Positions 3 to 21,000 of a stretch of DNA of 64,000 bases are shown piece by piece (the first letter of the stretch is position 1; each line of letters opens with the position of its first letter). Location of the stretch: contig JAQURX010000002.1 of NCBI GenBank assembly GCA_028715415.1, forward strand, positions 119,144-183,143, written 5' to 3'. A program made the position numbers and the translations under genes. The notes beneath the pieces were generated by a model. The model was not told where the DNA came from. It did not search any database and worked only from the letters and a program-made list of their open reading frames with translations. This stretch comes from Candidatus Omnitrophota bacterium (GTDB lineage: Bacteria; Omnitrophota; Gorgyraeia; Gygaellales; Profunditerraquicolaceae).

Positions 3-3000
3 AGAGGGATTGCCCATGAACAATTTACGCATGCAGAATTTAATTCAGATGCTTTTATTCAAAGGTTTTGGGATGAGAAAAGATGGGGTAGGCCATTTTA
101 CGCTTTAGCTAAGGAGGTGCCAAAATGTACAAAGCAGAGCAGCTCGAATTTACCAGGGTTATGCCCAGAAAAGACGGTATCTTTGTGGATGCGAAGTATA
201 ATAATTGGCATTACGAGTTTCATTTCCTTATTCAGCAAGACGGTAAAGTTAAAGGCGAAACAAGCACTGGCAGTTGGCTTGAACTTAGCAAAGAATTTAG
301 CAGCCTCGTTGTTAAGAGGGCTCGTTTCGTTATCGCTAATCAAGCAAAACTTATCCATCTTTAGCTTTGCTCAAGACGGATTTTTATTACCTGAAAAGAA
401 AGCGCTTTCCCTAGATAACTGCGTAAACCCAAGATTAAGGATTTTGATTGTGGATGATCAAAAATGCAACCTTGAAATAATAAGTGAAATATTAACAGGT
501 TTTGATTCATTAATAGAAATTACTACTGCAGAGAATGGAGAAAAGGCGTTAGATTTATTTAGTAAAACAGAATTTGACGCGGTGATTACTGACAAGGAGA
601 TGCCAGGAATAAGCGGCCTTTGGTTAGCTTACGAAATCCGAAAAAAGAATCCTAATGTTATTATTTTATTGGCAACTACTAAACCAAAAGACGAAACTAT
701 ATCTGATTATATACGCAGAGGAATTTTAGATGGATATATAGAAAAAAGTTATGTTGATGAGAAAATCTGGGGTGATCAACTAGAGCAAATAAAACGAAAA
801 ATATCGGGAAGACAGGCACAGGCCAAAGATTCTAATAGCGATGGGCAAGTTAACTTACAAGCTTTAAGCCCTGTCTTTTTAGCAATGATTTTGGATTCCA
901 TCCATAGCGTTATTAGTAACCATTTATTTTTCGGTTTATCTATTGTTGCTATGGTAATTGTAGCTGATTTAGGAACGAAAATGTGGGTGTGGCATAAATT
1001 GCTATTAGGTTCGGAAGTTACTGATGACCAAGGGCCTCTTAAGGATGTTGTGAAGGGGAGCTATTATCTTCATAAATCATTCTCCAGGTTTAGTTTTACT
1101 CTGTTTTCAGTCAGCATGGTGATTGGTTTTGTTTGCGTTCAATCGGTTCAAGGCGCAAATTATTTCTTTATAGCTAGCTCTGCTATTACATTAGGAGCAG
1201 TAATATCGCAAACAATCGACTGTTTTATTAATAAAGGTGGAGTTACTGATTGGATAATCTTAAAAAGACAAGTAACGAATATCGCAGATATTATGTTGTT
1301 GGCTAGTCTTTTAGTATTATTTATCGGATTTACAGTTGATATTATCAAACATTGTTTAGTAGAAGTAGATGTCCCATCTATTTTCATTTCTTTAAGCGCG
1401 ATAAATTGCATAGGCGCCTGTTTTAATAATACATATATTTCATGCCCCGCTGCAAAGTTCGTTAGAAAAAGCAATGTTTACCTCTCCGTGGCTGGTGGGG
1501 AACATTCGCTTCTTTGCAACGGGGCGTGGTCTGTTAAGGATAATGACACTCGTGCTTATCCTGCGAAGGCAAGAACGGCAATTAAAAAACCCACCGTGAC
1601 ATTATCAAAGAAAAATGGTAAAGGAAAACTTAAGATTGAAGAAATAAACTATCGGGTTCCCGGCAATCAAATTGAAAGATTAAATACTGAGGAAGAAAAC
1701 GCTTTACCTGAAAAAGTTGCTGATATCCTGGATGGCATTTTAACGCATGCCCCGCCGCATAAAGGGATTAAAATTATTATCACCGGAGAGCGCAATAAAC
1801 AGGTATTCAGCATTGATCGGGAAGGAAATATCCTTGTTTTTACGATACACTGGGTTTTATTAAGAGAAGACTTTGCCAACGGTATTGCCCACAGGCTTAC
1901 AGATATCCGTAAGATTGTTGAGGACGCGAAAGCAGTTATCCGTGATGATATTAAACAGCATGAGAAATGGGAATTAAACGGTATTAATTCAGGTTTGTCA
2001 AAAGAAATAGCCCATCGTATTGCCTGCGAAAAGAGCGTAGAGTATTTTAAAAATCATAAAAGAGAATTGATTGATTTCTTATCCGCAGTGCAAAAATGTA
2101 AATTAGATTTAACCTTGGATGAAACATACGAAAGACAGCTTTTAGAGCTTGCGTTAGAGGAAAATTGTTTAGTTACCGCGTTTGCAGAGGTTCTGTCCGT
2201 TCATAGAAGAATTTCCGAAGAAGTTAGTTATATCGCAAAAACCATTACAAATGAAGATGGCGATATTTGCTTGCAGGATTTACGCTTTTGGCATGGCAAA
2301 ACTTTATTACCTCTTGCAAAGTCGCTTAAGATTATTCATCAAAAAATCTTGTCAGAAAGAGAAGGATTGGTTTGTAATTCAAGTTTCCGTATTGCCTGCG
2401 GTAAGATAGAGATAGACTTTGCTTTTAAAGCAGGGAAAAACCATATTATGATTGTCAGGTCAGACCACGGAGATTGGCATGCTTATGCAGACGAAGAAAA
2501 TTTGTTCAGCGCTCCGGGTTCTAAAGGTGATGCAGGCTTAATCAGTGCTTACCAGACTTTGCTTAACAATCCTAAAGAAATTGAGTATGTAGGTATAGAG
2601 GAGGATAAAGATTTTTCCGCGAAATTAGCGGCGCTCAATGCTTTAAATAAAGAAAAAGGCTCTAATAAGGTTATTGAAAATGTCCTGAATGACCCTGAAT
2701 TTAAGAGAAGAGTATTCTCAATCATCAGGGCTCAGGACAGGCAAGATGATACGGGCGGATATTCTGTGGATAGGCAATGGGCAGAAAAGATTAAGGAAGA
2801 AGTTTTAAATCGCGCAGTTGATGTAATTAAAGACAGGGACATTTTTATCCTGCAGATGGAATATGAGTTATCCGCAAGGTTCTTAAAAGAATTTTGCGAG
2901 TATTTACAGCTTAAAAAAGGCTGTACTTACGATGATGCAATTTACAATACAGGCGAACTTGCAAAGCTTCTAATGGCAGGCGGGTTAGGGAGTTTTAAGC

Positions 3001-6000
3001 CTGATTTAGTAAGAGGATGGTATCAGGTTCTTGAAGAGCACTTGGGGAGTATTGAAGCATTAAATAGATTGCATGTTTTTGGCATTATGTATTCTCAGGC
3101 GATAAAAGGACAGGGTGCAGTTAAGCCTAGAGGCGCTATTGCAAATGAAGACATGGCTGATATTGTGCGAAAGTGTTTAATTAAAATTAAAACCTTTAAA
3201 GATATAGAAATTAATATGAATGGGGTAGATAAGGTTGATGTAGAGATTTATATGAATCCGTATTCTGAATTAAAAGAGTATTGGATTTATGATATACCGA
3301 ATCCCGTTACCGGCCAGAGGGTTTTTCATGAAGCATATTGTGGCGGGGCTGATGATGATTACCGCGCTATCCAGACATTGCTTTATCGGAAAGTTGTCTT
3401 GAGGTTTATTAAGGAAGGTGTTACTGAAGGGTCTATAAGCCGTAGAATGTTATTTTCTACAAGTGAAATAAACAGTACTCTTGTTATTCCGGAAGTTGTT
3501 GAGGATGAATTTGAACACGATGTGGATTTTAAGGAGTTATTAATCCATCATTATAACCATACAATTGTTCCTGCAGGCATGCCTTTATATAATTGGTATA
3601 TGTTTCATGCTTTAAAAATCGCAAAGCAGTTTTCAGACTGTATTTATAACGGCAAGGTAGATTTGGTTAGGATTACTGGTAGGGTCAGCCATATAATCAC
3701 AGGATGTTCTACAGCCCATACAAAGATATTAAGAGAAGAAATATTTAGAGAGTTCGCGGATAAAGTAACTGAAGATGAATTATTCGGCAATAGCGAAGGC
3801 TCGGATGTGGAACGTTGGCAGGGTGAAGAAATCCAAGCCTTGATTAAGGCGTATATGTTAGTTACAAAGGCCGCTACATACAGCGATTTGTTTAATGCTT
3901 TAGATAATGATAAAAAACTAAAAGCAGTTTTTATTAAAAAACTGCTAGAAATCAAGAAAAGGCAGAAGCAACTTTTTATTGATGAACTGTTTAAAGGTAC
4001 TTTTGGCCAGATTGATGTAACTAAGGATGATCTTAAAGCTGCCGGGACATCGTTGATTGATCGGCCGTTCTTTACTTTCGTAAGAAGGTTTGTTGATTAT
4101 AAGTGCGGTGATTTTATTGTAGATGTTTTATATGACCAGAATTTTAGAGAAAGAATTGTTAAGTCAGGAGCGGTAATCCTTATCGGTGGTAGAAAATTCG
4201 GCTCTTTTGCTGACATACAGCACCGCAGAATTCAGGATTTAATCAAAATAGACCCTCGGATGAAATATCATATTGTTTTTGTATCCAACCATAATGTCGC
4301 AACCTCCTGGATAATTCAGCAAGGCACTAATTTCGGAGGCATGCTTTCATGGATGGGTAAAGAAGCAGGGCCTACAAGCTTTGGTAATGCCCAGCAAAAC
4401 GGTGCTCCAAGCTTTGCTTCTCCTGACGGGGTAATTGTTGAAAGGGTTAAGGCGGTTGAGAGAGATGCCGAAGGTAATATTATAAATGGCACAGGTTATA
4501 TTGTTAATTATGGGCAAGAACGTTCATTTTCCGGAGATATCAAACCTGACAGAGAATCATTTGTCGCGAACATGGAAACTGCATGCGGGGATTATTTTAG
4601 GTCCGAGAATTACGGGGTTCTTGCTTATAATGCTTTGAGAATGGGCTTGGGCCAAGGCGACATAAGAAACCAGGCTAAGGGTTTAATTTGTGTCTGGGCA
4701 AAGATGTGTGAATCATTTGATCCTAACCAGCAATATTATAGAGTTGGGGTAGGTTCCGATATTGGAGTAGCTACAAGCCGTCTTAAGCCAGTTGGTTCGG
4801 AAGAAAAAGATATTATGCCGGATGGTGTAGTTATGCTTAAATTAAACTCTGATTTTAACGTTGGAATTAATACTGGTAATGATCGAGTTAATCAATGGTT
4901 TAAAGAGAATGCTCCAGCAATAAATAGTCGTTTTAAGGGCATGGCTAGCGATTCAAGATTAAAAGATTTAGCAGGGATGATTGAAGCTAATCCGGAAATA
5001 AAAGCCATATTTACTGCTAACGCTGAATTTGTCGGCCAAGTTATAAATAGAATTGCTTTATTCCACTGGTCGATGATTACGCGCGCGCCTCCGCTTTTGG
5101 CTCAATTGGTTGTCGTTGAAGAAATCCTGCATTATTATTTCCCCGGACAAAATGAGTTAGTACATAGTGTCATTGATGATTATATCAGAGTAAATTTGGC
5201 AACGTCCTTCCATGAAGCAATCCAAAACGCTAAACAATATGGTATTCATCCTGTAGATGCATGGGGCCAGGAAGATGCCCTCCAGCTTTATAACAGATCG
5301 CCGTATAATCACGCAAAGCATATGGAAGTGGTTATTAAGGCTGATGTTGATATGGCAGGGGATGAATTTGCGATTCAAATACTCAAATGGCTGCAATACT
5401 GGTTTATGCGTGTATCTCCTACTTCTCAAATCGGTATTCAGCTCTGCACAGGTGAGAGCCCGTTTATCGGATACCGTAAGATCGGAGAAATCCTGAAGAA
5501 TTGGGATACTAGAGAAGTACAAGAGTTTTTGCGGGCAAATGGTTTGGATACAGCCTTAAAGCCGGATATGAGAAGGGTTGTTGTTTTTGCCGTAGATGCG
5601 ATGTTTCCTCAGAAACGTACCGACTATTTTTCTTTCGCGAATTTACTTAATAGCGTATGTGACCTGTGGGGTGTGCCAAATGAAAATCGTAATCTATTCT
5701 ATGGCGATATATATGTTAGTTATGAAAATGGTAAGTGGCAGGAAAGCATCATTCCTGATAATGAATATGCAGAGATCTTAAATAGTATTGATAGGGAAGG
5801 TTTGCAGATTTTGGAATTCCAGGCAGCATGTTTGTTGGAGCGCGACCACGCCAAGAGAGATTTGCGTGGTTTTGCTTTTAATTCTGACCTTGTGCGTCAA
5901 GGCAAAAAAGTCTTTGGGCATATGTTGAGAAGAAACAATCGCGGTGACTTTGAAATTATAAAAAGAGAGATAAAACCGCTTTCTCCGGATCACATACAAT

Positions 6001-9000
6001 ATAAATATCTTGAGGGTATGCGCTTGCAGGCAGTGATGATGCATGAACGTTTAGCAGAATTTGGTGGTGCGCATATTACATTGCTTGGCGAAGGGCCATC
6101 GAATGATGGTGAGGGGCATATGGGATTCTGTGAAAGCGGAACTCATCCGAAACAGGCCTGTTTTATCGGAGCTATACATGATTTTGATGCCACATTCCAT
6201 ATCTGCGGTGCACATGCTAAAGAATTCTACGGCTTAAAGAAAATGTTCGTAGAGGTTGGAAATATACGTAAACCGAAATTCGCTTTTATCACTTATGGCC
6301 CGGCTGAATTTATGTATCGCCAAAATAAACATTCTCCACAGAGGGATATTGATAATGAAGTTACAGTTTTGGTTATTTCAACAGGTAATGTCAAGAGCCG
6401 GACTAACTTAAGGGCAATAGAAATGCCACAGGATATTACTTGTCCGATAAGCCTTGCTCAGGGTAGTAAAGGTAAATTTATTTTAGATGCAGCTGCAGCC
6501 AGGGAGTTAAGGGTAGTAAGATTCCCATGGGAATTCCAGATTATGCGCCGCGAATTCTGGAATTTATCAAATGCACGAAAATACTTCATACAAATCGCAA
6601 AGAGCTTAGGTTGTAAGATTGCAAATATCAGCATTAGGACTGCTGCCCGCCATTGGAGAAAAGATAGTTCTGCTATGCAGGAGATCCGTAAGAATAGACT
6701 ACATAATATCAAAGGATTGATTTCAGCTATTTCCGAATCTGGCCGCGAGCCTCGTCAGGTTGTGGAGGATGTTATGAAGGATATACTTTCAGGCATAATC
6801 CGACCGGAGCAAATCGTAGAAAAACTCCGAGAATATGGTATTCATCCGGGAGATCCGCTGCTTTTAGCCAATCCGCATATGGACGATGAGTTCTTAGCCA
6901 AAATGCATCTTATTCAAGTAATGGCTAAGCATTATAAATTAAAAGCTTATTATAGTTCGTTTGGATACACAGCTGTGTATAGTGATTACGTCTTAGGGTT
7001 GTTAGATTTTGCCAGCAAATTAAAGCCCGAAGAAATCAAAAGCTTAACTCCTGAAAAAAGAAAAAGTCTTGTTAAAGAATTGGTTAAAGAACAGAGTAAC
7101 TTTAAGCATGTCCCGGAATTCGATTATGAAGTCTTGCCGCATATGAGCGATAGAGAAAAAGCTCTTCGTGCGAAAGTATTGTTAATTGATTTAAATGAGA
7201 GGTTTGAATCGGCATTTGATACAGTTAATAAGATTGAACAATTAATAGAATTCCTGCGGCAAGTGGAGAAACGAAAACCGCGCGACGGTGGCGTGGATAT
7301 TGATTTTATGCGTTATGCGAAAACAACAGTCAGGTTTACCGAAGCTCAATCAGCATTGATGTCTTTGGGCATTAAATACGAAAATGTTTATTGGCCTTTA
7401 GATGTAAGTTTCTACGGCACTCCAGGCAGGCCTTTGGCAATAAGCAGAGCTGATATTGATAAAATCAAGAATATGATTCGGGATGCAGACCCAAGGATGA
7501 TTATATTCAATGGCGAACGCTTCCCGGATTTCGGCGGGCATTCTAATAACGAAATTGGTATTTGTATTGCGTTACGTGAGCTACTCAATGAAGCCCCGGA
7601 TACTGCGGCAAGAAAGAGAATTGAAGATATTATATTATTCCAATGGGCTGGTGTTTGGGATAGGATCAGTGCTGAAGATGCTAATTTGAGCGTGGTGCTT
7701 ACCAAGGATGAAATCAACGATTTTATTAAGGCATTTATTTATTACTATAGGACACAAGCACCTTACGCGCCTGTTCTTAATGCTTCTTCAAGAAAGCCTC
7801 AATCATTTGCTCATGATGTAAGGGTTAATGCCCATATCTCCGCACAAGAAATGCTTGATTTGATTGATTTGCCTCTTAAGATGTCGTCTATGCTTAGGAA
7901 CGGAGGGGGTATTTTACATTATAGATTGACCCGCTTAGGTGACTCTACGACATTACAGGAATTTGAAACTAAACAACGTACATTAGTTCGTTCTATGACC
8001 AGTATCAATTGTTCAAGCAATGCCGCAATGAATGGCCCTGCGCCATATCCTCAGGCTCTGGATAAAATTTCACAATATTTAAGAGAAGAGATGTTTGCTG
8101 TCGGAGCGATATCTTCCCGTGAGGCGCATTTATTCGAGTCTGGAACTAAGTCAATAGTTTTGGGCTGCAATTTGTTCTTAGTGCAGATTTGGAATTTTAT
8201 AGAAAAATTGATAAAGATGAGTTTATTGCCGCGGCCGTATCTTTCTTTAGGGCCAGTTCCCTTTGAAGTCACAAAAGGCGGCAGGTTTACGACAAACTAT
8301 AATTGCATTGCTTGCTTTATGGATAAAGATAAGCGTGATGAGGCGATTAAGTGGTTAAGCGCTGAAGGCGGCATAGAAGCAATGAAGGCTATGTTATATG
8401 TTTATCAGGTTGTGGCTGAACCTGTTAAGCCCATGTTGGATGTATTAAAAGAGCGATGGAGTTGTTTGGGTTGGCTTCCTAATGGGCAGTTTAATTTTAA
8501 CCAAAATGCCTCTGAAACCAAACTTCTTTTAGAAGGCATAAAAATTTGTTTAAGCAATATTGTAAGCGAGAAGAGTATAGATTTAGAAAAATGCCCACGT
8601 AAACGTGAGGGCACAAGAGCAGGGTTTTTGGTCCAATGGATGATAAAGGCTGCCCGTGAAAATATCCCACACGATAAAAGTTTTGCGTTGATTAAAGAGG
8701 TATTGTTAAAATATCCGGAAAAATCATTGCCTGTGCTGCAGACTAATTTGAAGAAAATTGTTTTAAATTTTTCTTTACGCAGCATATTGCAAGATATCGC
8801 TAAGCAGATTGAAGAAAATGAAAGAGAGCATACTTTAAGCCGTCAGTATTCCTCCGCTGGAATATGTTTCTTCTTTGTTCCGAGCGGGCAGCAAATCAAG
8901 GATTTAATTCACTTGTTGCATAGCGGCTTAAAAGTATTACGAAATTCAGGACTAAAGTTTATCGCGGAAGCTACGCGAAAACTAATGAAAATTGGATTAA

Positions 9001-12000
9001 TCCCGCGGCTATATTTTTCTTTGTACTCATTAGATGTCTCTAAGGGTAGCGCTAATCATGTTCCAGAGCTTCCGCTTTTTGTTTTAGCAGTGGATAATGA
9101 AGATTGGGAGTTGATGTTGCTCAAGCGAACATTAAAAGGTATTATTCCAGCCGATAAGATAATTGAGGCCTTAAGCGGCAATGAAGCATTAGAGTTATTT
9201 AAACAAAATAAAGATAAAATTAATTTAGTTATTACCGATAACAATATGCCGGGGATGTGGGGGCATGATTTAGCAGGAAAAATCAGAGAAATAGCTCCCA
9301 ATATTCTGATAATTATGCGCAGCACAGAGCCGGGAGTGAATAAGACGAAAGAAAATATTGATATATATGTTGATAAAGAAGGCGTTGATTGGAAAGTCGT
9401 AATCGCGCAAGCAAGGGGAATGGTCCAAGAGAGGTTAAGCAAGGAAGTTATTTCTCTGCCAGAGGCTGAACCTTTATTTCCTTCTGGCTTCGGTATCCCG
9501 GAACTTATCCCTGATTCAGCTTTGAACTTGGAACGTAGATTGACGGATCTTGTAATGCTTTTAAAGAGTAATGTTAATTTGTTGAGCCGTGATGAGATTA
9601 AAGAAGTAATTTTGCAAAAAGTAGTTTCTTTAGAAAAAATGCTTGAATTTTTAGCTGTAGCATTAAAACAAAACGTTAATCCTTGTTTAAGTTGTATTAC
9701 GAATATGAAATGTAAGGCTGTTGATGGAGAAGGGCAGTGCGGGAAATGTGTTGGTTTAACTAAATTCCATGTTAGGGAAATACAGGCCTTTCTTGCGGTG
9801 GCAAGAAACTTAGAGCGACTTCTAAAAAATGGCGCTTCCGGAGCAAATAGCCGAGCAGCTTTGAATTATAATCTGGATTTACTTACAGCTGCTTCGCCTT
9901 TTGCAATGCAATTAAACCAGGGAGGAGTTTACTTAGGCTGCAATCTCTTCTTGGCCGATTGGAATTATTTATTATGTAACTTAGTAAAGACTTTAATTAA
10001 GTGTTTAATATTTGATGTGATTGGGCTGCTGCGGGTTACGAAAAGGATTTGGTTCGCCTTCCGTGGCTGGTGGGGATCAAATCTTTTCGCAGCAGCCGAT
10101 TTTACTCAAGCAGTAGATCGATTGAAGATAATGCGTATCCTAATGTTACCGATGAAATTCAATCTGCTTCAAGAGAATAGAAGAAGTGAAGGGATTTATA
10201 GAATAGTTTGTAAGGCAATTCTAGATTTTATCAAGAATAAAGAAAATAAATTAAGCGAAGGACAGAGAATATATTTTCTCGATAAGAAAAGTATTGCTAG
10301 AGAATTAGAGATTCCATACGTATCGTTGCTTAGATATTTCATGGGCAATCAGGAGTTAAGAGAAGCACTGATGGAATTAAATAATAAAATAAAACAGCAT
10401 AATAAAATTCTTAAAGCTCGTAAGCTGAAAATAACTGTTGAGGTAGTAAGATTGGTGCTTGAGTTAACTCGTCAAGAGATGTCCCTTGGGAAAGCTGTGT
10501 CAAGATTAACCCAGCTTAAGTTGGCAAATCGTTTGGCAGTCTCAAATGGATATTTAGGGTTGTTCTTAAGAAAGAATGCATTTCTAAAAGGTGAGTTAAT
10601 TGATTTAAATAAACAGATAAAGGCTCATAATAAACAATTCAAACCGCTTAAGAAACATAGACATTATAAACTTTCGCCAAGGCTTAAAGAGGCACGTGAA
10701 AAATTGCTTACATTTTTAGGAGGTATAAAGCTTTGGGGTTTACCGAAAGAATTTATTCCTAAGAAAAAAGGAGTATTAAGTATCGCTGAAATAGCGAAAC
10801 TTGCGCAGGTGCATCCAAAAACCGTGCGTGCTCTCATAAAGCATAGCCGAAGTGTGAGCAAGTATTTCTCGTGTGTAAACCCAGCATTGATTATGTTGAC
10901 AACAATAGAGCCGCGCATGGACACTATTATTTTAGCCTGCTTAGGATGCTGGTTGTTTGTAAAGATTTATCAAGTAGCCAGGGATTTATTAAGAGCAAAG
11001 AAAGAGGAGGTCTTACCAATTAACGAGCTTGATTTTAATCCTGCTCAAATAATCAGCGAGAAAATTAGAATTCTGAAAGATAAAATTTCTGATCATCTTG
11101 AGATAATGAGCGGTTTAATTACAAGTTTATCTAAAGCTAAGGCAGGCGAGCTGACGGCTGAAACGAAAATTAAGCTTATGAGCTTAGAGAATAAAGTAAA
11201 ACAAATTAATGGGATTGTTTCTCAGTATGTTTATTCCTTAAACAGCCAATCTTTTGATGAAACTCAAGCTAATAGGGAAGATTTAGCTATTCTTTTAAGA
11301 ATAATAGCGGCTACTTTGAGGCATGTTATTCTTACAAGGCTTTTTATAATTCGTGTTCCTGTCAATGACAGCATTCATAGGAATCGCATAGATACAGAAG
11401 ATATTAAAACTATGCCGGAAGAATTTTTACGTATTAAAAAAGTATTTAAGCATCTTAGCAGAGTTAAGTCTGAAACGTATTTAAAAGCAGACATCTTGGA
11501 TTTATATATACCCGGAGTAACATCCGGAAATCTATCGGAATATTGCAGTTTCAAAGAATATATCGCGAGAAAGAAACTGGCATCTACACCAAAACCAGCT
11601 TTTGTTCCGCAGCGCAATATTCTTACTTCTTTTGGCCGCGTAGCTTCTGCCGCAAGAATATCTCCTATTATTATCATATGTATTGCCGGATGCACCTTAA
11701 AAGAAGATATTTATGGTATTGAACCATTTTTTGTATTGACGGCCGCAGTAATTGCATACCTTATCTATAAATTAAGAAAATCAAAGCTTACCAATGAAGA
11801 AATCATCAGGCAAAATGTAATCCAAATCTGGCAGAATAAAATTTATCTATTGATTGCAGGATTAATCGGATTGCTAGGCTTAGGTATATACGAATTAATT
11901 TCATGGGCTTATTATTCCGGTTTTGTCCCGCCGGCTGGAAATCCACCTTTTTATAAAGTCCCGTTTGGGCTTACAGTGCTTATGGGTAGTATGGCTTTTG

Positions 12001-15000
12001 CGCAAAATTTAATGAAGCCTTATGATATTGCTACATCTTTACGGGAGATTAGGCCGTTTCCTTTGTTCGTGATTAACGGAGCTAAAGATTATAAGATTAT
12101 TGCGGAAATTCCTCAAACACACATTGTTTACGGGAATTTCTCATTACCTGAAGAAGAAAACTTGCGCCGCAAGATAGAGGAAAGGTATTGTGTTGGTTGC
12201 AATTGTGCAGAGAGAGTAGAGGCTGTAATCCGTAATCTTAAAGTATTAATTTTAGAATATGCCAGGTTGCAGGATGATTGGCAGGGGCAGTTGCCAAACG
12301 CAAATAAAGGCTTAATAATTTTTAGCGGTCCGACTTCCGGAGCCTGCCTGTTGGGGAACAATTTACAGACTCATCGGCCCGGAATAAATATCCGGCTTTT
12401 GGACGATAGCCTTATAAACCGAGGATTAAGCCGCGAAGGATTAAGGTTACTGACACTGATGAATAGGCTTCATGAAGAAGGTGAGACCTTAAAATGGAAA
12501 CAGAGTTTGATTCTTGAGGCAGAGACGTTGTTCTTTTTAAGCCTTAAGAAATATGAAAATCAACAGGAATTTCTAAGTAGTTTAGGGCGGGTGGAAAGTA
12601 CATTTGGGCCGCAAGGTAAAATTATGCCAAGGCCAAATTTTGATTATTTCTCAAGTGTGTTTTCGGAGCAAGAAAAATTATTCACATCCGACAGGAATTT
12701 CCAATGGATTGATTTACAGGAAAAAATGTGGCAAATCTTTGAAAACGATGCCGTATACGATAACTCTATTAACTTGGTTGAACATTCAATAAGAATACAT
12801 CAGAGAATTAACCATGTTAACAAAAATAAAAGCGTTGAAATGTACAGGCTTATTGTTAGCTCTGGTTTATCCAGGCAGGCTCAAATGGCCTTGCAACATA
12901 TCATGCTTTCTTTTTACGGTTGTTGGTCTACGGAACAGCTGGATAATCTTAAGGGTATCGTAGAAGAGCTTATCCGTATGTTTGCTAAATTTGATAAGGC
13001 TGCCGGGTTTAATCATTGCTTGGAAACCATAATGCAAACCCAGAGCCCTAAGTCAATTGTCGGGGTTTTGGATGAACTCTGGCATGTAGATTTCTTAACC
13101 AAGTTATTAAGTAATAGATTTAATGTAGAGGTTATTGCATTTAGGGTTATTGTTAAGGATCAAACTGGGAATACGCAGACAGATATCGATTCTGTAATCA
13201 AGCTTTATAATAAAGAAAACCAGGAACTATTGGGAAATTACTGGGTACAATCTTCTTCAAAAAAGAATGGCATAGAAAGAAGATTGCGTAATATGTCAAA
13301 GGTTATAAAGTTTCTTGGTAATCCTGATTCTCATTGGAGCGTTTATCCAAAAGAATCTGAGTTTGTGATGATGGATGAAGAACATTGCTTTATTCCTGTT
13401 AAAGGGGTCTTTTTTACCTTCCAAACATTATACAAAGATTTAATGACAAGTTTCCGCAATTATGCATTGGAAGATGAATTGCCTAGATTAGTTAAGGATT
13501 TGCCGAATTTGAAAAATATACCGATACAATGCTATTTTGTTCCCGAAGCCAGATTTGTTCCCGCTATTGGTTCATTTAAAGCAAGGCCGAAAATATATGA
13601 TGCAGGAGTTGATACAGCCCGTAGTAAGCCAAATTCTTTAATGGGTAAAATGAACAGCATACTAAGAGACCTGCAGGTTCTACAAGCTGATTTCCTATCG
13701 CCTGTTCCCGCAAATATTGATTCTGGAGCAAGAATTAATACTATGAATAGCCGGTTCCATCTGGATTTTGATAGCAGCGAAGAAGATTTAGGGGTTGTAA
13801 GAGGGAAAATTATTTTGCCGTCTTTTAAATTTGTTCCGCTTGATGCGCTTACCGAACGCCAGGAAAGGGCACTTGAAGGAATTGATATCAAATTACAAGA
13901 AGTAAAAGAGATTATTAAAAGAATAGGTTATCCGCAATGGTTGATTCAGGAAATGCCTTGCGGGGAAATTCCCGTAAAATTCAAAGTTACTACCAGCATA
14001 GTACATAATAAATTAGCCAAAGTTGAAATAGCAGAAGGCTATGGGCCTAATTCCATAAGTTTTTCCTGGGCAATGCTTACAAGGGCTCCGCCATTGATCG
14101 CTTTGCTAACCTTTGCCGAAGAAATCCTGCATTTTGTTATTGATGAAGATTTAGAGGTGCATAATGCTATTGATTGCTATGTTGCAAATAACCTTTATGA
14201 TTATTTCTTAAGTGAAATTGAAAAAGCTAAAAGAAAAGGAATAAATCCGCATGATAATTTGTATAAATATCTCAATCGTTCCCGCCCAGTAAGCGCCAAG
14301 CAATCAATGTCAACCCCTCAGCCATATTGGAAGGCAATAGATTTAGTTAATAGTTCACAGTGCCTTCCTCCCAGAGAAAGATTACCCGTCTTAATAGATG
14401 CATTTGAGTTAGATCAAAATAATATAGTTATTGCAAATATTATTGCCCAGGAATACCTGCAAACAGCGCATCATCAATATAATACCCCGGAAGAAAAAGA
14501 TGCTTGTGGGCAAGCTGTGTTTTGGGCGAAAAAAGCTATTGATTTAGGTGGTAAACTCATCCGGGAGAATGAAGAGTATTGTGTTTTCGTTGTATACAAT
14601 CAAAAAAGAAGCTATGCAATTATTTTTAAGGTTCATTTGATTAGCGGCAGCTATAAAGAGGCTAAGAGAGCCGCGCAGAAGATTATTGAAATTGATCAGA
14701 GCGATTCTTTTGGGCATTTAAATTTAGCTGCTGTCTTGGCTAAGCAGGATAAGTTAGGAGAAGCATTGAAAGCCAATGATTGGTTTAAAGATAATAATGT
14801 GGAATTTCCTATAGCGCGTAAACAGCGTTGCGAAATTCTGCAGAAATTACAGAGATTGGATGAGGCGCGCGAGGAAGCCAGGAAATATATTGAGTTGGAT
14901 CCTTATGACCCTGATGGTTATGAAGACCTCTGCCGGATAAGCCTTGGATTAGGTGATTTTGATACGGTTATTGCTGCAGCAGATAAAATTATTTTCTTTA

Positions 15001-18000
15001 ATCCCGATAGTGGCTTGGGACATAGTAGAAAGGTTCAAGCGTTGCGTGCTAAAGGCGAGATTAAAGCAGCCTTAAGAGCCGCAGTAAAGTTCGTAAATCT
15101 ATTTCCCAAAGATTCCATAGGCTGGAGCCAGTTGTGCGACGTGTATTATGATTTAGGTGATATGGAAGGCGCTTTAAGTTCTGCTTACGAAGCTATTAGT
15201 TTAGATCCGTCCAGCCCTTACGGTTATGGACAGTTATCAAAGGTGCTTCATTATTCTGGTTTAGAGTTTGAAGCAGCGATTGTTAGTGCTATTTCTAAGG
15301 CTTTGACTCCTGTGGGCCGGGGTTCTTTCGACAGCCGTTTTAATCTTATGTACATTTTAATTAAGGAATTAGATCTTAAGTGGTTAAACGGGAATATTGA
15401 TTTACAAGAGCGCAAATTTGTCCCGTTGTTTACCCCAACCGTTGAACAAAACGAAGCCATCAACATATTTAATCAGCTTATTGCAGAAGCAATTGAAATT
15501 ATCGGGAAAATGGGGGTAGTTTTAGAACCAGAATTAATCCGCACAAAGTTAAGGGTGGATACATCAAATGGTAAACTCGCTTGCGCAGCTGTAGAGGAGG
15601 CAATAGGAGTTACCAATGCAATTATTATATCTTGGGCGATGTTCGGCCGCGTGCCAAGATTAATCGCTTTGTATACTCTTGTAGAAGAAATATTGCATTA
15701 TAGTAAAAATAAGGATAAGGAAGTCCACGACCTTGTAGATGATTATATCGCAGAAAATATATATGATGATTTTCTGGCGGCTGTCAAAGAAGCTGCTGAT
15801 AATGGAATTGTTGCTTATGATCATTTTGTAGAGCGATATCTTTTAGAGGCACGGACTCGAGTTCTTGCGTTAGGGATTTTAAGAAATCTTCTTTTAAAAA
15901 GATATTCACAAGCATTTGAATCAACATCAAAGTTACTGGCTTATGCTACTTCTGATGAGGCACAGATAGTGTTAAGAGATGCGTCGGACATGTATCCCGA
16001 ACGATTAAATCAAATAGATAGAAGCCTTTTAACTGATACTGAATGGAGTTTTTGCAGAAATTTATCTTTAGGTAATTCTCTCAAGGCTCTATATGCAGCA
16101 GCAGAATTTATCAATAAAGAAAAAGAAAGCCCTGTTGGGCATTGGCTGCGCGCAATCGCTTTAGCCCTTCAAGGACGAACATTAGATGCGTTAGGAGAAG
16201 AAAAGAAAGCAAGAGAGTTTGATTTGCAGAACTCTTTTAGTTCTTCATTCTGCTTATCTCTGCCGGTTTTGGCGCTTTTTGGCATCAATGCTTCAGGTGC
16301 ATTTCCCGTAGCTGTAATTGCTATTCTTGCTATCTTTATTTTAATTCGTCAAGGTAGTTTCTCTTTTGCCCAATACGAAAGTCAATCCTTCCAGCCCAAT
16401 GCATGCGAAAGTAATGATCAGATAGAAGTAGCCTTTTTCAATAGGAAATATTTTACGCAGTGCGGTAAAAATATTTACGGCCTCCATATAGGAGATCAAA
16501 CATATCTTTTTGTGGTTCCTAATACGTTACCAGCCAGCCAAGATATGGCAAGTAGTATCACAAATTTGCGTTTAAGCGGCGGTAATGAAACACTGGATTT
16601 TGGTAACAGTAGTTTTGATATTGAAGATAAGAAATTCCAAAGGTATTTTAAATATCTTTTAAGATTTATGACTCAATTGAGTAGTAATGAATTGAATTAT
16701 AGTGATGGTAAAATTGCGATTAAACTGTCGATTAAGTATGGTTTAGAAAGAACTCAACTAAAAATTGATTTCCCGAAAACAGAATTTTCAACCGATATTA
16801 TAGATATCGAGCACAATAAAATGACTATAGATTTTCATAATTCGCCAAATTGGAGAGAAAAATCTTTAGCAGAAAGAAGTGTGTTATGTTTTATATACCT
16901 CCCGGCAATTATGCAGCGTGAAAATCTTAGACTTGGAGATATTGCATTGGAGCTTCTTTCAAATTTGCATTTGGAAATGCACCAGAAGAAAATAAGTAAT
17001 ATAGGCGTTAGGTGTGTAGATTTTCTTAAGTTTATGGCAGGCCAGCGCCGCGAAAAAGACTTAAGATTGTTATTGAGAAAATGGGAAGATGCAGATGAGG
17101 TATTAGCTGAAAGAATTGCGGCAAAGTTGAATGATGATTTACCGTATATAGATACGGGTCTTGTTAATTTAGTTTTACTAGGTAAAAATCCGGAAGCCAA
17201 TTTCCATAAAGCAATTGCTAGTATTTTTTCCGGTTTTGGTATTTCTTTGAAATTAGAAGAATTAGCTTTCTCGTCAAGAGCATTGCATATTGTTGAATTG
17301 GTGTCTAGAAAAATCGGTTTTAATTTAGGTCCGCAGTCTACTATAAAAGAAGAAAACAAATCAACTTTGTCTTGCCATGCTTGGTCAGTTTTAGCGCTTT
17401 TTGTCGGAAGTTATCAGCAAACATCCGTCATTGAGTTTCTCTGGGCAACCGGACCGCTGTGGGTGGTGGTTGCCTTAGCTGCAGTTTTATTCTTATCGAT
17501 GATGAATTTTTCTAAATTAAATCCTTGCCGCGTACCATCAACCCAAACAACTTTAAAACAGATACTTGATTCTAAGAAGATTGATATTAATTTCAAGAGA
17601 ACAATTCTTTATCCGGATATCCTTTTGCTTCTTTTGGGTGAAAGGCCGGGGTATATAAGATGCGAAGACAACGGTGACCCAGATATAAGCAAGATAGTAA
17701 GAAGTAAGATCGGAAATAAGTTAAGATTATTTAAAGCCGGAGATGTCACTATTTCTATCCCTCTTTTTGTTGCAAGGTTGAAGAAAGAAGGTTTATTCTT
17801 GGTAAAAAGCGGGATTATATCAGAAAGTGATTTACGTGCAATCGTTTCAAATTCAGCTTCAACTTGTAGTTTATTAACCGAACTTCTACTCAAATACAAA
17901 GAAAATGAATCTGATAGCGTTCAATTAGTAAAGTTGTGTGGTTTCATAAGCGGTTATCCTTTAAAAGATATAGAGTATGCGTTGTCAGGTAATAATCCGC

Positions 18001-21000
18001 TTAGAAAAGCATGGAGTTTATACGGCCTTAAGCGTTATTCAGACCAGGGGAGGAAAGAAGCTTTATTTAATCGCTGGGATAAGTCTTTAACTGATGCTTA
18101 TTCTTTATTGGCCAATGAATCATATTTTAATTCAGTAATGCCGGCTCGGGCTTTAGTTGCTTATTTGGGCCTTAAAGTTAAATCTGAGGAAAAATGGATT
18201 TATGTCGCAAATTGGTTTAAACGTTTAGCCGGATTTTTTAAGAATATGAAGTTAGCTGATTTTGAAAGAACCAAATATAGTTCAGATATAACGGATTCCC
18301 ATATTATTATCAATAAGCATAAGAGTTCAGGATGGTCTGCCGACCAATATGATGAGGAAAGAACAAGAGTCAGCGTAAGCGGTGGAGAAATAACGTTTGA
18401 TTACCGGTATACATCGAAAATCCATAGCGGCGGGCATGAAGATAGCTTTAAGGTTGTTTTTAAAGGGAATGTAACTGAGTGCGAAGCAAGCAGGGAATGG
18501 TCTCATTATACTGACCGTTTAACACGATATGGATTTGAATTTACATATAGAGGGCCGAGCCCGCTTGTTGATTTTGTAGGAGATTTAGATAATCTGCGCG
18601 CGGTTGTAACTCCTGATTTCTTAATCTGCTTAAGGTCAGCAATAGAACACTTTGATTATAAAAATAGAGGTTGTCGTTGCCAGGCTAAAATGCTCGAACC
18701 TGTAGAACTTAGCAATATATATTTACCTTTTGTCACAGAAACAGGTATTCAGAATAGCCCTGAGTGGAGAAGAAGGTTTTTATTTGAGCGCTTATCTTCG
18801 CATCCGCAAGAAAGCTATCCGTTTATTTTTAAAGATAGTGCAGCTGATTTCTCTAATTCTTTCTACAGTTTCTCCTTTTTGGCGATAGGGCTACCGTTAG
18901 TTTTTGATTTTCAAATAAGAGTGGTCCATATTATCCTAATTTTAGCTATTCTTATGTCTCTTTTTTATAAGTATGTTGTAAGGAAACATCTTTCTTTGAA
19001 CCAAAGTGGACATAAATCAAATTATTATAAGTATGCCATATTTATTATTGTAGCGTTATTGTCTATAGCCGCCGAACTTTTTTCAAACTATACAAAACGC
19101 ATTTATGACAAATTCACGGTAGTTGTAGTTAATGCTAATAATGTAAAACCATCCGAAGCCGCCACTACTCCAACTGAAACAAAGAGAAAAAATATTCTGG
19201 CGATTGTTGATAAGCGTCTTTCGGAAATGCCCGAATCTGAATTCAAAGAACACGCTAGGAGATTCAGAAGGGCACTTCTGTGCGCATCCTCTTTTGAAGA
19301 AGGGGCTTTTATTACTTCTACTATTATGGATGTTAAGAAGCACAAGGTCGGCCTTTCTATAAATTATCAGGTTTTTGTTGAATCCAAGGCGTTAGCGCAA
19401 AAACTATTTATGGTGGTTGAAGGCCGGCAGCTTTTGAATATTGCCTGTGTTGAGCAACTCATAAATATATCCAATGAGATTCCTGTAGTTCTTGATAAAC
19501 ATAATATTCCCCGCCATGATACTGATGCTATCGTACGTTTTGCTTTGCAAAATTCTGAATTTACAGATTTACTGCGAAGGGTTGCTAATTTAATTGTTGA
19601 TGGAACGTATTTTGGGTACAGGGAGGCCATGGAATTCTTGGTTGCAGAAACAAAAAGAATGAATAATGGTAAATTCAGCCTTTCGGAATATGAAACAATG
19701 GTGAAGCAGTATATTAATTCAGGATCCGAAATGTTTATGTTTGTCTGTGAGGATGGAAGCATTGATACCGGCGCATTAAGGAGCCATTTATTTATAAACC
19801 CGGCCAGTCAAAATTTATTATCAGAATTGATTCTGTTTATTGAAATGAAACGAGTGGGCAGCGATAGCAATGCTTTGACGTCTCCCGAATTTAGTAGCCT
19901 GTTATTCTGGCTTGATTACCCTAAATATTTTTGTGATTATTCTAAGGTAAAGATAGATCATCGTTGGAAGGATAATTCTGACTTGAAAAGAATATACGGG
20001 GAGCAAGGTGATTGGTTTAAAGATTATTCGCCTCTATTTAAGCATAATTCTGATGTTCCTTTGCATTGTTTTGCGTCTGTTCCGCTATTGGCGCTTCTTG
20101 GTCCCTGGTCCATCGGACCGCTGTGGATTGCGTTAGGTATTTTTGCTTTGATATTTGTTCTGCAGTTTACACAGACAAATTCCACTTTTCCTTGTAATCC
20201 TATCGTAAAAACTATTATTGCTGCCACTAGAATACATGCCCGGCAGTCTGAAAGCCTTGCCGTGATTTCTACCTTAATTAAGGAAAGAATAGGGATTAGT
20301 TTTAATATTAAAAGTAATAAATATAACCGTGCTACAGATCCTGTTTCTGCAATTGAATTATTAAAGCTAGCCATAAATCCAGGTGATTCAATCGAAATAT
20401 CTGTCCAAGGAGATTGTTCTATAGAATTATTGAATAAGGTTTTAGATATATTCATCAGAGCCTTTCAGGATCATAATCTTGATGCATTCGGATCATATGA
20501 TCATAGGGGTGATGTATTGCGTTTATCAATAGATAATAGCAGAAATGGGGGAGGTTCTATTCTATCCTGCCACGCTTGGCCTGTCTTAGCACTCTTAAGC
20601 TTTAACTCGCTATGGCTGGCGGTTGCCTTATTTGCATTCTTAGGTGTTTTCTATCTTGAGAAGGCGATTAAGAACCCCAATTTATCAGCTGCTATGTTTA
20701 CACCAACCCGCGGATATGGCAAGCGTAAATTCTGGTTTTTAGATAAATTTAGGTCATATATACATGAATCATGGCACATTATAGCGTATATTATTTTACA
20801 TCCTTTTTCTTCGCTTCTTGGGAAAGACAGGATTACTCTTGAGTTATTAAAGGCTACTTATGGAAGTAATCGTTTTGATCCTCCGAAATCTGAAGAAGGA
20901 TTGTTTGGTGCAATAGGTTGTCTGGCGGCTCCGTTTGGAAATGCCGCTTTTCAGGCATTGCTGACTTATGCTGCTATAGGGCTTTTTTCTGACGCATCCG

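Follow-up and report, generated by a model that had tools for sequence, protein, structure and literature searches.

Introduction

The small gene comS lies within srfAB, in the surfactin synthetase operon of Bacillus subtilis, where it is co-transcribed with its host and translated separately (PMC12915044). It is thus wholly enclosed by a far larger, multi-domain gene; the two share a strand but are read in different frames. The host srfAB encodes an NRPS, its reading over comS is a conserved NRPS domain, and comS itself has a narrow taxonomic range. A different arrangement is found in prfB, the RF2 gene, in which a short upstream ORF ends in CUU, the stop codon UGA and C, a Shine-Dalgarno (SD) stimulator stands 3 nt upstream, and a +1 slip leads into a long ORF. 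Overprinted gene pairs of phages and bacteria, such as the phiX174 genes and lambda Rz/Rz1, keep two frames open under asymmetric constraint. To our knowledge, well-supported and conserved same-strand nested genes are rare in bacteria.

Giant proteins of Omnitrophota have been described in two preprints (West-Roberts et al. 2023; Nielsen & Lui 2026); they are encoded by ORFs of tens of kilobases that carry many unrelated Pfam domains. Text searches of these two preprints found no mention of out-of-frame nested genes or of internal SD-led ORFs.

Here we analysed a 64,000-nt stretch of DNA, referred to as a whole as the window, in which a giant ORF encloses, near the 5' end, a 79-aa reading frame that lies on its own strand and in its -1 frame. 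We read it as a genuine small-protein gene nested in a multi-enzyme giant ORF and probably translated separately from it, and give this reading a probability of about 0.75. The features discussed below are collected in Table 1.

Table 1. Features of the 5' part of the window and of the enclosing ORF (positions in nt of the window).
Feature	Position	Strand	Remarks
Giant ORF, frame 3	3..64000	+	at least 21,332 codons, both ends cut by the window
TAA stop, frame 2	110..112	+	immediately 5' of the SD, closes the small-gene frame on its 5' side
Shine-Dalgarno AAGGAGGTG	111..119	+	GGAGG core 113-117, 7 nt before ATG125
Nested small gene, 79 aa, frame 2 (-1 relative to the giant ORF)	125..364	+	ATG125 to TAG362-364
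Frame-3 reading of the small-gene DNA	126..365	+	non-conserved spacer peptide, stop-free
Hairpin (353-381) enclosing the UAG, with T-rich tract TTTTTATTA (381-389)	353..389	+	intrinsic-terminator-like
CTT TAG C, last codon of the small gene, stop and next base	359..365	+	AGC 363-365 in frame 3
Palindrome GAAAGCGCTTTC	398..409	+	within the conserved block TTTTTATT...AAGAAAGCGCTTTC
REC domain, first in the giant ORF	441..764	+	Pfam PF00072, E = 3.8e-18

Results

A multi-enzyme giant ORF spans the window

Frame 3 had no stop codon in the 64,000 nt, whereas frame 1 had 1,615 and frame 2 had 2,286. Because it runs without a stop over this length, we class frame 3 with the multi-enzyme giant ORFs that have been described in Omnitrophota; its length exceeds the 10,000 codons that mark such giant proteins. 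Many distinct Pfam domains were tiled along it, comprising sugar-metabolism and signalling modules, so that enzymes and regulators form a mosaic: two REC domains, phosphorylase-like and SPase II-like domains, TPR, Pyr_redox_2, M48, GT4/GT1, alpha-amylase, four or more copies of HTH_3, a methyltransferase and an alpha/beta hydrolase. GT1, PGM, REC, SPase II, methyltransferase and HAD domains are common to the window and the described Omnitrophota giant proteins, which have transmembrane segments between their domains, and the domain content agrees with that of the 'multi-enzyme metabolic cluster' giant proteins (bioRxiv 10.64898/2026.06.07.730766). Several TM-like segments were located by a Kyte-Doolittle scan in the first 500 residues. 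The placement in Omnitrophota draws on domain content and the literature; the window contains no marker genes.

The first REC domain corresponds to residues 147-254 of the frame-3 translation counted from nt 3, and codon scores there gave an ordinary frame-3 coding signal. Frame 3 was also the coding frame upstream of about nt 108, as the initial annotation had recognized for the sequence ahead of the small gene. Frame 1 is open in that upstream part as well, to an extent expected by chance (P = 0.71), and the idea of another nested gene there (frame 1, 1-108) was dropped on this account. When residues 122-621 of the giant ORF were compared with genome_contigs, and frame-3 residues 1-466 with the protein database, only unrelated REC domains were matched, and a search of viral_contigs found no relative. 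Two minus-strand ORFs of more than 170 aa had no Pfam match.

A second coding frame with its own translation signals at 125-364

The small reading frame is wholly contained in the frame-3 ORF, as comS is in srfAB. When 80-codon windows were scored with the codon model of the giant gene, frame 3 was outscored by another frame in only 1 of 21,254 windows, and this was the site of the small gene. The margin there was +0.24 bit/codon, where the background averaged -1.27 (sd 0.42), and the frame-3 codon score across the small gene was near the 0.5th percentile. The base composition of the three codon positions agrees with frame 2 and does not fit frame 3, and 113-364 is the longest stop-free run of frame 2 in the window. 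The frame-2 coding signal noticed at the outset is thus real, and frame 3 is not favoured throughout. The window has further long ORFs in alternative frames, among them 31144-31452, 62446-62955 and 11474-11722, but these were rejected as candidates because their translations are junk-like and they have no SD.

The small gene has a translation start of its own. The sequence TAAGGAGGTG occupies 110-119, and the SD within it is the strongest of the window; AAGGAGGT occurs once in the 64 kb with both strands counted. In the giant frame the SD stretch reads K-E-V. An SD-driven start had been proposed from the beginning, and the SD itself stood, but its spacing had to be corrected to TAAGGAGGTG-N5-ATG, that is, GGAGG-N7-ATG. 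We found no sigma-70-like promoter ahead of the small gene and no direct or inverted repeats flanking it as marks of insertion, and nt 1-1500 had no Rfam matches.

Codon choice in the small gene keeps the giant frame open. All seven of its Leu codons are CTT or CTC and it contains no NTA codon, whereas 39% of the Leu codons of the giant gene are TTA, a peculiarity already pointed out in the initial annotation together with the openness of frame 3. When the 79-aa protein was recoded with the synonymous usage of the giant gene, 5.7 stops were expected in frame 3 and none was observed (P(none) = 0.0002-0.0013). The reverse recoding gave 5.5 stops expected in frame 2 (P(none) = 0.001).

The small protein belongs to a family of short, free-standing or nested proteins

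A phmmer search of 1.84 billion representative proteins with the 79-aa product retrieved 48 homologues at E<=1e-3, 12 of them at <=1e-10. They were about 71-148 aa long, mostly 74-83 aa, and the alignments covered most of each length; no in-frame fusion of the domain was present in this search space, every match being 148 aa or shorter. W51 is invariant in the family, and W28, F34, G40 and G44 are at least 90% conserved. AlphaFold2 modelled the small protein with a pLDDT of 89.7 and a pTM of 0.77, predicting five beta strands followed by a C-terminal helix.

The family was detected only by the full HMMER scan: an exact-sequence look-up and a word-indexed homology search with the 79-aa protein gave no match, nor did searches of Pfam, NCBIfam, PHROGs and PADLOC, and Foldseek found nothing significant in the PDB for the model. 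A weak match to the RecA C-terminal domain in a PDB sequence profile search was inflated by multi-RecA fusion chains and was set aside as noise.

Seven further metagenome loci share the nested layout

The same layout was found in eight loci in all, namely the window, L006, L018, L019, L020, L021, L023 and L025. They are independent assemblies, comprising JGI contigs and contigs of ENA/MEGAHIT style and SPAdes style. L006 covers 20 kb of the 714-kb contig Ga0265297_10000019 and is stop-free throughout, with at least 10 kb open upstream of the small gene, and L020 is 5.2 kb long. Six of the eight loci are short contigs (0.5-5 kb), so the enclosing ORF is demonstrably giant only in the window and L006. 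The +1 frame relative to the small gene is stop-free over all the sequence examined in seven of the eight; the exception, L025, has one stop in it, 266 nt upstream of the small gene. The host ORF of L025 opens after a stop at nt 53 and may not be giant. The recoding and divergence statistics cover the other seven nested loci, including the window.

In these seven loci, synonymous recoding gave 3.4-6.2 expected stops per locus in the +1 frame and none was observed (P(0) 0.0000-0.0123 each). Among the 21 pairs, differences at codon positions 1, 2 and 3 of the small gene were 0.42, 0.32 and 0.61, and amino-acid identity was 0.44 in the small frame versus 0.26 in the giant frame. The nested frame is thus under purifying selection of the kind expected for a pair such as comS/srfAB, and the host frame is maintained across the overlap in its openness only, not in its sequence.

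The start signals were conserved likewise. A GGAGG-like SD precedes the ATG by 5-8 nt in seven of the eight loci, and L018 has the weakest, GAAGG, so that an SD is present in all eight. The GGAGG-N7-ATG geometry is the same in the window, L006 and L020, the small-gene SD is the strongest in each of the long loci, and a stop in the small frame lies 4-6 codons before the ATG in L006, L018 and L023 as it does in the window. In L006 and L020 the small gene was also the top-ranked site at which the -1 frame outscores the giant frame. The flanking giant-ORF protein of the window has no similarity to that of L006; on sequence comparison, the small gene is not kept in position by conserved neighbours.

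More distant relatives are free-standing genes, with stops inside or adjoining the small gene in their +1 frames. In L022 the stop of a multi-enzyme gene of 6,803 aa lies 82 nt before the small-gene start, and in L010 it lies 3' of a gene of at least 1,376 aa with DUF4147, MOFRL and LMWPc domains.

Because the layout recurs in seven other loci, we regard the overlapping pair of genes as real and reject both a frameshift site and an error of sequencing. An overlapping nested gene was one of the explanations first suggested for this locus, and it is borne out by the conserved family, the seven further loci, the purifying selection on the small frame and the avoidance of stops in the giant frame. 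That the layout is an artefact or a coincidence, arising from two compensating indel errors or from a giant gene that starts after 364 with frame 3 open upstream by chance, is hardly credible. Indel errors do occur in long-read assemblies and one locus alone would be insufficient for exclusion, but compensating errors, which the initial annotation had also considered, are excluded because the layout is conserved in eight independent assemblies. The stop four codons ahead of the ATG closes the small frame, moreover, and the N-terminal Met of the family is aligned with that of the free-standing members. As for coincidence, the chance that frame 3 would be open across the small ORF is 0.0002-0.0013 in the window and similar in each further locus, and frame 3 has coding signal upstream of nt 108. 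A small gene standing just upstream of a giant gene with a non-AUG start, a further early suggestion, is excluded by the same open and coding-like upstream frame, and no related nested locus has a frame-3 stop across the small gene that would place the start of the giant gene downstream.

A quite improbable alternative is that, once engulfed by the giant ORF, the small gene ceased to be translated, with the frame-2 signal and the SD as decaying leftovers. The spacer-like frame-3 reading and a downstream hairpin and T-tract resembling a degraded terminator would suit such a fossil. The small frame, its ATG and its SD are intact in all eight loci, however, despite pairwise identities of 32-57%, differences are in excess at third positions (0.61 vs 0.32-0.42 elsewhere) and the family-invariant residues are retained. 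A dead frame would be expected to acquire about five stops from the frame-3 side, and its probability of staying open is 0.001.

The CUU-UAG-C site resembles that of prfB only superficially

The CTT TAG C at the end of the small gene, from which a +1 slip would read AGC in frame 3, is present as originally described and, like the prfB site, comprises CUU, an in-frame stop and C. It had been proposed as a programmed +1 frameshift: ribosomes would start at AUG125, slip with tRNA-Leu from CUU to UUU and continue in the giant frame, in which case the small ORF would be the true 5' end of the giant gene or an alternative entry point to it. The SD, the strongest in the window, and the TTT TAG C ending of L023, which is also slippery in principle, are compatible with this.

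The comparison with prfB nevertheless makes such a frameshift very improbable. No SD-like element was found within a few nt upstream of the CTT, where the sequence is AAAACTTATCCAT, and GCAAAACTTATCCAT upstream of it has no purine-rich match to the anti-SD, whereas in prfB the stimulator precedes the slip codon by about 3 nt. Since the stop is UAG and not UGA, autoregulation of the RF2 type would not apply. The site is not conserved: the endings in the seven loci including the window are CTT TAG C, TCT TAA A, ACA TAA T, GCC TAA A, GCC TAA G, TAC TAA A and TTT TAG C, and L025 ends in TCT TAG T, so that six of the seven other nested loci have another codon-and-stop context and five of these seven (TCT TAA A to TAC TAA A in this list) have endings that cannot slip. 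Unlike the long ORF of prfB, the giant frame does not depend on the start of the short ORF; it is open and coding-like from base 3 in the window and open for at least 10 kb upstream in L006, and a slip of this kind is unneeded because the giant frame continues upstream. A frameshift also does not predict that stops are avoided in frame 3 along the whole small ORF.

Two related candidates were dropped. A -1 shift out of the giant frame into that of the small gene lacks a conserved slippery sequence, and a small-frame stop lies just before the SD; for termination-reinitiation into frame 3, no start codon of that frame is conserved past the small-gene stop.

A terminator-like hairpin and a conserved block follow the small gene

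The hairpin around the UAG has a dG of -7.9 kcal/mol and ranked 5th of 157 among T5 runs of the plus strand. A 99-nt fold gave z = -0.2, and a strict terminator scan found none. The free-standing genes of L016 and L022 have clear hairpin-plus-T-run terminators at the equivalent place, and the nested genes of L020 and L023 are followed by a hairpin and then a T-tract. In the window the hairpin and T-tract may be left over from a terminator that belonged to the small gene, or may work as an attenuator. If the element is active, transcription would not always pass through it, which would complicate a simple read-through picture.

The block that contains the palindrome reads G-F-L-L-P-E-K-K-A-L-S in the giant frame. 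Its synonymous sites AAG-AAA-GCG are conserved, though just 16% of Ala codons are GCG. There is one copy of the palindrome in the 64 kb, and the motif recurs 64-190 nt past the small-gene stop in L020, L023 and L006, in the last as a variant.

One could suppose that these elements, from the SD and small ORF to the hairpin with its T-tract and the palindrome, make up a conserved unit by which expression of the giant gene is divided. Such a unit would let ribosomes load internally, attenuate transcription in a translation-sensitive manner and bind a protein at the palindrome; expression of the giant ORF would then not proceed as a single unbroken unit. The conservation of the 3' block at synonymous sites in the window, L020, L023 and L006, the single palindrome in 64 kb, the rank of the hairpin with its T-run, the terminators of free-standing relatives at the equivalent place and the strength of the small-gene SD in the long loci are all compatible with such punctuation. 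We nonetheless consider it unlikely. The distance from stop to motif varies from 34 to 190 nt, L018, L019 and L021 lack the palindrome, the hairpin of the window is weak by both its dG and its z value, a conserved frame-3 start codon after the small gene is absent, and one module per 64 kb is too few for segmenting a giant gene. If it were true, genes of 60-440 kb would be expressed in regulated segments instead of as one transcript and polypeptide, and the target of the small protein would be the giant protein or the expression of that protein.

Discussion

The sequence comparisons above show that both frames are coding and that their layout is conserved, and they suggest separate translation of each product. 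In the reading that we prefer, an independently translated gene overrun by the giant ORF, ribosomes loading at the internal SD would make a free 79-aa protein and stop at its UAG, while ribosomes on the giant ORF would pass through these 240 nt in frame 3, translating them into a spacer whose sequence is immaterial and from which stops are excluded. Selection would keep the amino-acid sequence of frame 2 and, in frame 3, the absence of stops only. The openness of frame 3 would be achieved through the synonymous choices of the small gene, with all Leu codons CUY, no NUA and an excess of third-position pyrimidines.

As to origin, a long multi-enzyme gene may formerly have ended just 5' of the small gene, a state that would persist in the relatives; after loss of its stop, the upstream gene would have run across the small gene and the remnant of its terminator into the next gene. 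As the giant ORF would thus have run on across the small gene, an older small gene was presumably overprinted by a growing giant ORF and not the reverse. This scenario is based on a handful of free-standing relatives and not on a phylogeny.

Compared with comS, which is narrowly distributed, the nested gene of the window comes from an older family, some of whose members are free-standing. The host reading over comS is a conserved domain, whereas that of the window is an unconserved spacer kept only stop-free, and in place of an NRPS gene the host is a giant multi-enzyme ORF exceeding 64 kb. The pair is like classical overprinted pairs in that one frame is conserved, the other is compositionally odd and both are kept open. 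In classical overprinting, however, it is the short frame inside that is new; here the gene inside is old and conserved, and the long host ORF has apparently been extended across it. The comparison of eight independent loci thus backs a nested pair of unusual direction, in which the host reading is new.

These findings would bear on how giant genes grow and how they are annotated. Giant genes may grow by running across neighbouring genes, with intermediates still visible in relatives. That the giant frame appears to be selected to stay open where its peptide is irrelevant provides indirect evidence of translation through enormous ORFs. Gene callers output only one of the two, the giant ORF or the small gene, and on short contigs giant ORFs are falsely split at the site of the small gene. 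Members of the family in the database come almost exclusively from contigs of 340-760 nt, which suggests that the family is systematically missed in genomes with giant genes. Being tightly linked to long multi-enzyme genes, whether nested in them or located just 3' of them, the small protein is a candidate partner of the giant proteins.

The giant ORF and a second coding frame

Frame 3 contains no stop codon over the 64,000 nt of the window, against 1,615 in frame 1 and 2,286 in frame 2, so a single ORF, no shorter than 21,332 codons, spans the entire window. By Pfam, unrelated domains form a mosaic along this frame: two REC domains, a phosphorylase-like segment, a signal-peptidase-II-like membrane segment, TPR, a pyridine-nucleotide-disulphide oxidoreductase, an M48 peptidase, a GT4/GT1 glycosyltransferase, an alpha-amylase, a methyltransferase, an alpha/beta hydrolase and a helix-turn-helix cluster, which is unexpected in a multi-enzyme protein anchored in the membrane. 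Omnitrophota encode giant "multi-enzyme metabolic cluster" proteins of up to 147,155 aa, with recurrent GT1, PGM, REC, SPase II and methyltransferase domains and many transmembrane helices (bioRxiv 10.64898/2026.06.07.730766; West-Roberts et al., 10.1101/2023.11.21.568195). Judged by its predicted domain content, the giant ORF matches this class. Searches of genome and protein collections turned up nothing closely related to the window. Pfam gave no match for the two longest antisense ORFs, which probably result from the absence of stops in the sense frame.

Features of the window and of equivalent regions in other nested loci
Feature	Locus	Position (nt)	Strand	Remarks
Shine-Dalgarno (SD) sequence TAAGGAGGTG	window	110-119	+	5' of ATG125
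Small ORF, 79 codons	window	ATG125 to TAG362-364	+	frame 2
Hairpin	window	353-381		encloses stop of small gene
T-tract TTTTTATTA	window	381-389		directly after hairpin
Palindrome GAAAGCGCTTTC	window	398-409		ends conserved block after T-tract
Hairpin/T-tract and conserved block	window	353-409
Hairpin/T-tract and conserved block	L020	332-410
Hairpin/T-tract and conserved block	L023	268-352
Hairpin/T-tract and conserved block	L006	10405-10440
Antisense ORF, 174 aa	window	16835-17359	-
Antisense ORF, 171 aa	window	37493-38008	-
HTH_3/XRE-type helix-turn-helix	window	about 47,300-49,500		giant ORF, frame 3; at least five (at least four HTH_3 by Pfam)

A codon model trained on the giant frame was scored in 80-codon windows (n = 21,254). 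Frame 3 was outscored in only one of these, at the small ORF. The difference there was +0.24 bit per codon (background, -1.27 ± 0.42), with the frame-3 score near the 0.5th percentile. In the same stretch, base composition at the three codon positions fitted the giant-gene pattern in frame 2, not frame 3; upstream of about nt 108 it favoured frame 3 again, and the open frame 1 was unremarkable (P = 0.71). The longest stop-free run in frame 2 was 113-364. Both measures agree with the initial annotation, which had placed the coding signal in frame 2 over 125-364 and a gene-like frame 3 upstream, and frame 3 was not favoured throughout. Its seven-nucleotide SD spacing holds when counted from the GGAGG core, but from the 10-mer the gap to ATG125 is 5 nt; a scan of both strands gave a single copy of AAGGAGGT in the window. 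The codon counts also bear out its remark on leucine: all seven Leu codons are CTT or CTC and NTA codons are absent, unlike the giant gene, in which 39% of Leu is TTA. When the 79-aa protein was rewritten with the synonymous usage of the giant gene, 5.7 frame-3 stops were expected and zero arose in just 0.02-0.13% of trials; the reverse recoding predicted 5.5 frame-2 stops (P = 0.001). The two frames are therefore open over the same 240 nt far beyond chance.

A family of small proteins

The database search suggested in the initial annotation, run in full with HMMER over 1.84 billion representative proteins, yielded 48 homologues of the 79-aa product at E <= 1e-3, of which 12 reached <= 1e-10. 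All were at most 148 aa long, mostly 74-83 aa, with alignments covering most of their length. W51 is invariant, and W28, F34, G40 and G44 are kept in at least 90%. The AlphaFold2 model from the family alignment (pLDDT 89.7, pTM 0.77) confidently predicts five beta strands and a C-terminal helix. A function search gave no match in Pfam, NCBIfam, PHROGs or PADLOC. A weak match of the family profile (positions 43-75) to the RecA C-terminal domain (1aa3, E = 0.5) among PDB sequences was treated as noise; concatenated multi-RecA constructs inflate E-values in this search. The HMMER scan showed no in-frame fusion of the domain into a long protein. Two database proteins, P0159 (148 aa) and P0140 (142 aa), carry the domain at their N-terminal start followed by unrelated sequence, which in P0159 is the C-terminal part of aldehyde dehydrogenase; they may be gene-calling frame-switch artefacts at nested loci, or real fusions.

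In the databases, contigs of 340-760 nt supply most of the family, which therefore hardly appears in annotated genomes with giant genes. Where contigs are short (L020, L021, L023, L018), gene calling yields the small gene, with the adjoining long ORF started or truncated beside it; on long contigs it yields the giant ORF only.

The nested layout recurs in eight loci

A metagenome scan provided L006, part of a 714-kb contig, whose small gene is 56% identical and is preceded by AAAGGAGGTGG-N4-ATG. Its +1 frame has no stop over the 20,231 nt examined, including 10 kb upstream of the small gene, and encodes a multi-enzyme mosaic as well (cytidylate kinase, UDPGP, epimerase, PGM, HAD, CofD, fucose pyrophosphorylase); no protein similarity to the window's giant ORF was detectable outside the overlap itself. 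Contigs of other family members added six nested cases, L018, L019, L020 (5.2 kb, PFK domain downstream), L021 (HD domain downstream), L023 and L025 (host ORF beginning after a stop at nt 53), which brings the total to eight with the window. In all eight, the host ORF occupies the +1 frame of the small gene, and a GGAGG-like SD lies 5-8 nt before the ATG in seven, L018 having a weaker GAAGG. The codon-score signature is also present in L006 and L020.

Selection was quantified in seven nested loci (21 sequence pairs; L025 left out). Synonymous recoding predicted 3.4-6.2 host-frame stops per locus and none was observed (P = 0.0000-0.0123 each), contrary to the possibility, raised in the initial annotation, that orthologues would carry frame-3 stops here. 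Sites differed at frequencies of 0.42, 0.32 and 0.61 for the first, second and third codon positions of the small gene, and amino-acid identity between loci was 0.44 in the small frame versus 0.26 in the host frame. In these comparisons the evidence shows a small frame under protein-level purifying selection and a host frame selected only to stay open, which implies that both would be translated. Ribosomes would enter the small gene at its own SD, while others would pass through in the host frame.

The annotation's first explanation, an overlapping gene nested in the giant ORF, was thus the right one, given a conserved family and a layout found in eight loci; on this sequence evidence, a conserved same-strand nested gene inside giant multi-enzyme ORFs is well supported. 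Because eight independent assemblies share the layout, two compensating indel errors are excluded; the open, coding-like frame 3 upstream excludes a non-AUG giant gene that starts downstream, with the small gene just before it. A prfB-like +1 frameshift had also been proposed. CTT TAG C is indeed present, and a +1 slip would enter frame 3, but the other defining features fail: the window has no SD-like stimulator upstream of CTT, its stop is UAG where that of prfB is UGA, and the other nested loci carry different contexts (TCT TAA A, ACA TAA T, GCC TAA A, GCC TAA G, TAC TAA A, TTT TAG C; TCT TAG T in L025). Moreover, the giant frame requires no start at the small ORF, and stop avoidance across the whole overlap would be left unexplained. 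The frameshift is not supported; low-level slippage may occur at the window's site.

L018 has another small ORF (3-191) directly 5' of the family member (219-458) and in frame with it; this ORF is homologous (E = 6.8e-10) to a 74-aa gene preceding the family member in L010. A single stop-free +1 frame covers both ORFs of L018, which appear to be two nested genes in tandem. The host reading of the overlap includes a TM-like hydrophobic stretch in the window (VSLWMRSIIIGITSFISLF, 177-233), and the equivalent spacer in L006 is Ser/Thr/Pro/Asn-rich instead. The region 3' of the small gene encodes transmembrane helices in L006, L018, L019 and L020, and a REC domain in the window.

Free-standing relatives and a possible origin

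More distant members (L007, L016, L024) stand alone as ordinary genes, their other frames interrupted by stops. Two free-standing cases are informative. The L022 gene begins 82 nt past the stop codon of a multi-enzyme gene (6,803 aa); in L010, three tandem small paralogues (4333-4557, 4612-4839 and 5168-5401), one very divergent, come directly after the stop of another multi-enzyme gene, at least 1,376 aa long and with DUF4147, MOFRL and LMWPc.

Just 3' of the small gene, L016 and L022 have clear hairpin-plus-T-run terminators. At the equivalent place in the window, the hairpin ranked fifth of 157 T5-run sites. The GAAAGCGCTTTC palindrome occurs once in the 64 kb, and its block is common to the window, L020, L023 and, as a variant, L006, including synonymous positions. 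The hairpin, T-tract and block may be a relic terminator, now read F-L-L-P-E-K-K-A-L-S; a working attenuator or binding site is improbable.

Among known systems, comS within srfAB comes closest: a small gene occupying another frame of a very large one (PMC12915044). Over comS, however, the srfAB reading encodes a conserved domain, whereas the window's host reading is only kept open. Term searches of the two reports on these giant proteins (10.64898/2026.06.07.730766; 10.1101/2023.11.21.568195) found no mention of nested genes. We infer that an ancestral long gene ended just upstream of the small gene, and that loss of its stop would have extended the ORF across it. The embedded gene would then be the older one, so that the usual direction of overprinting would be reversed.
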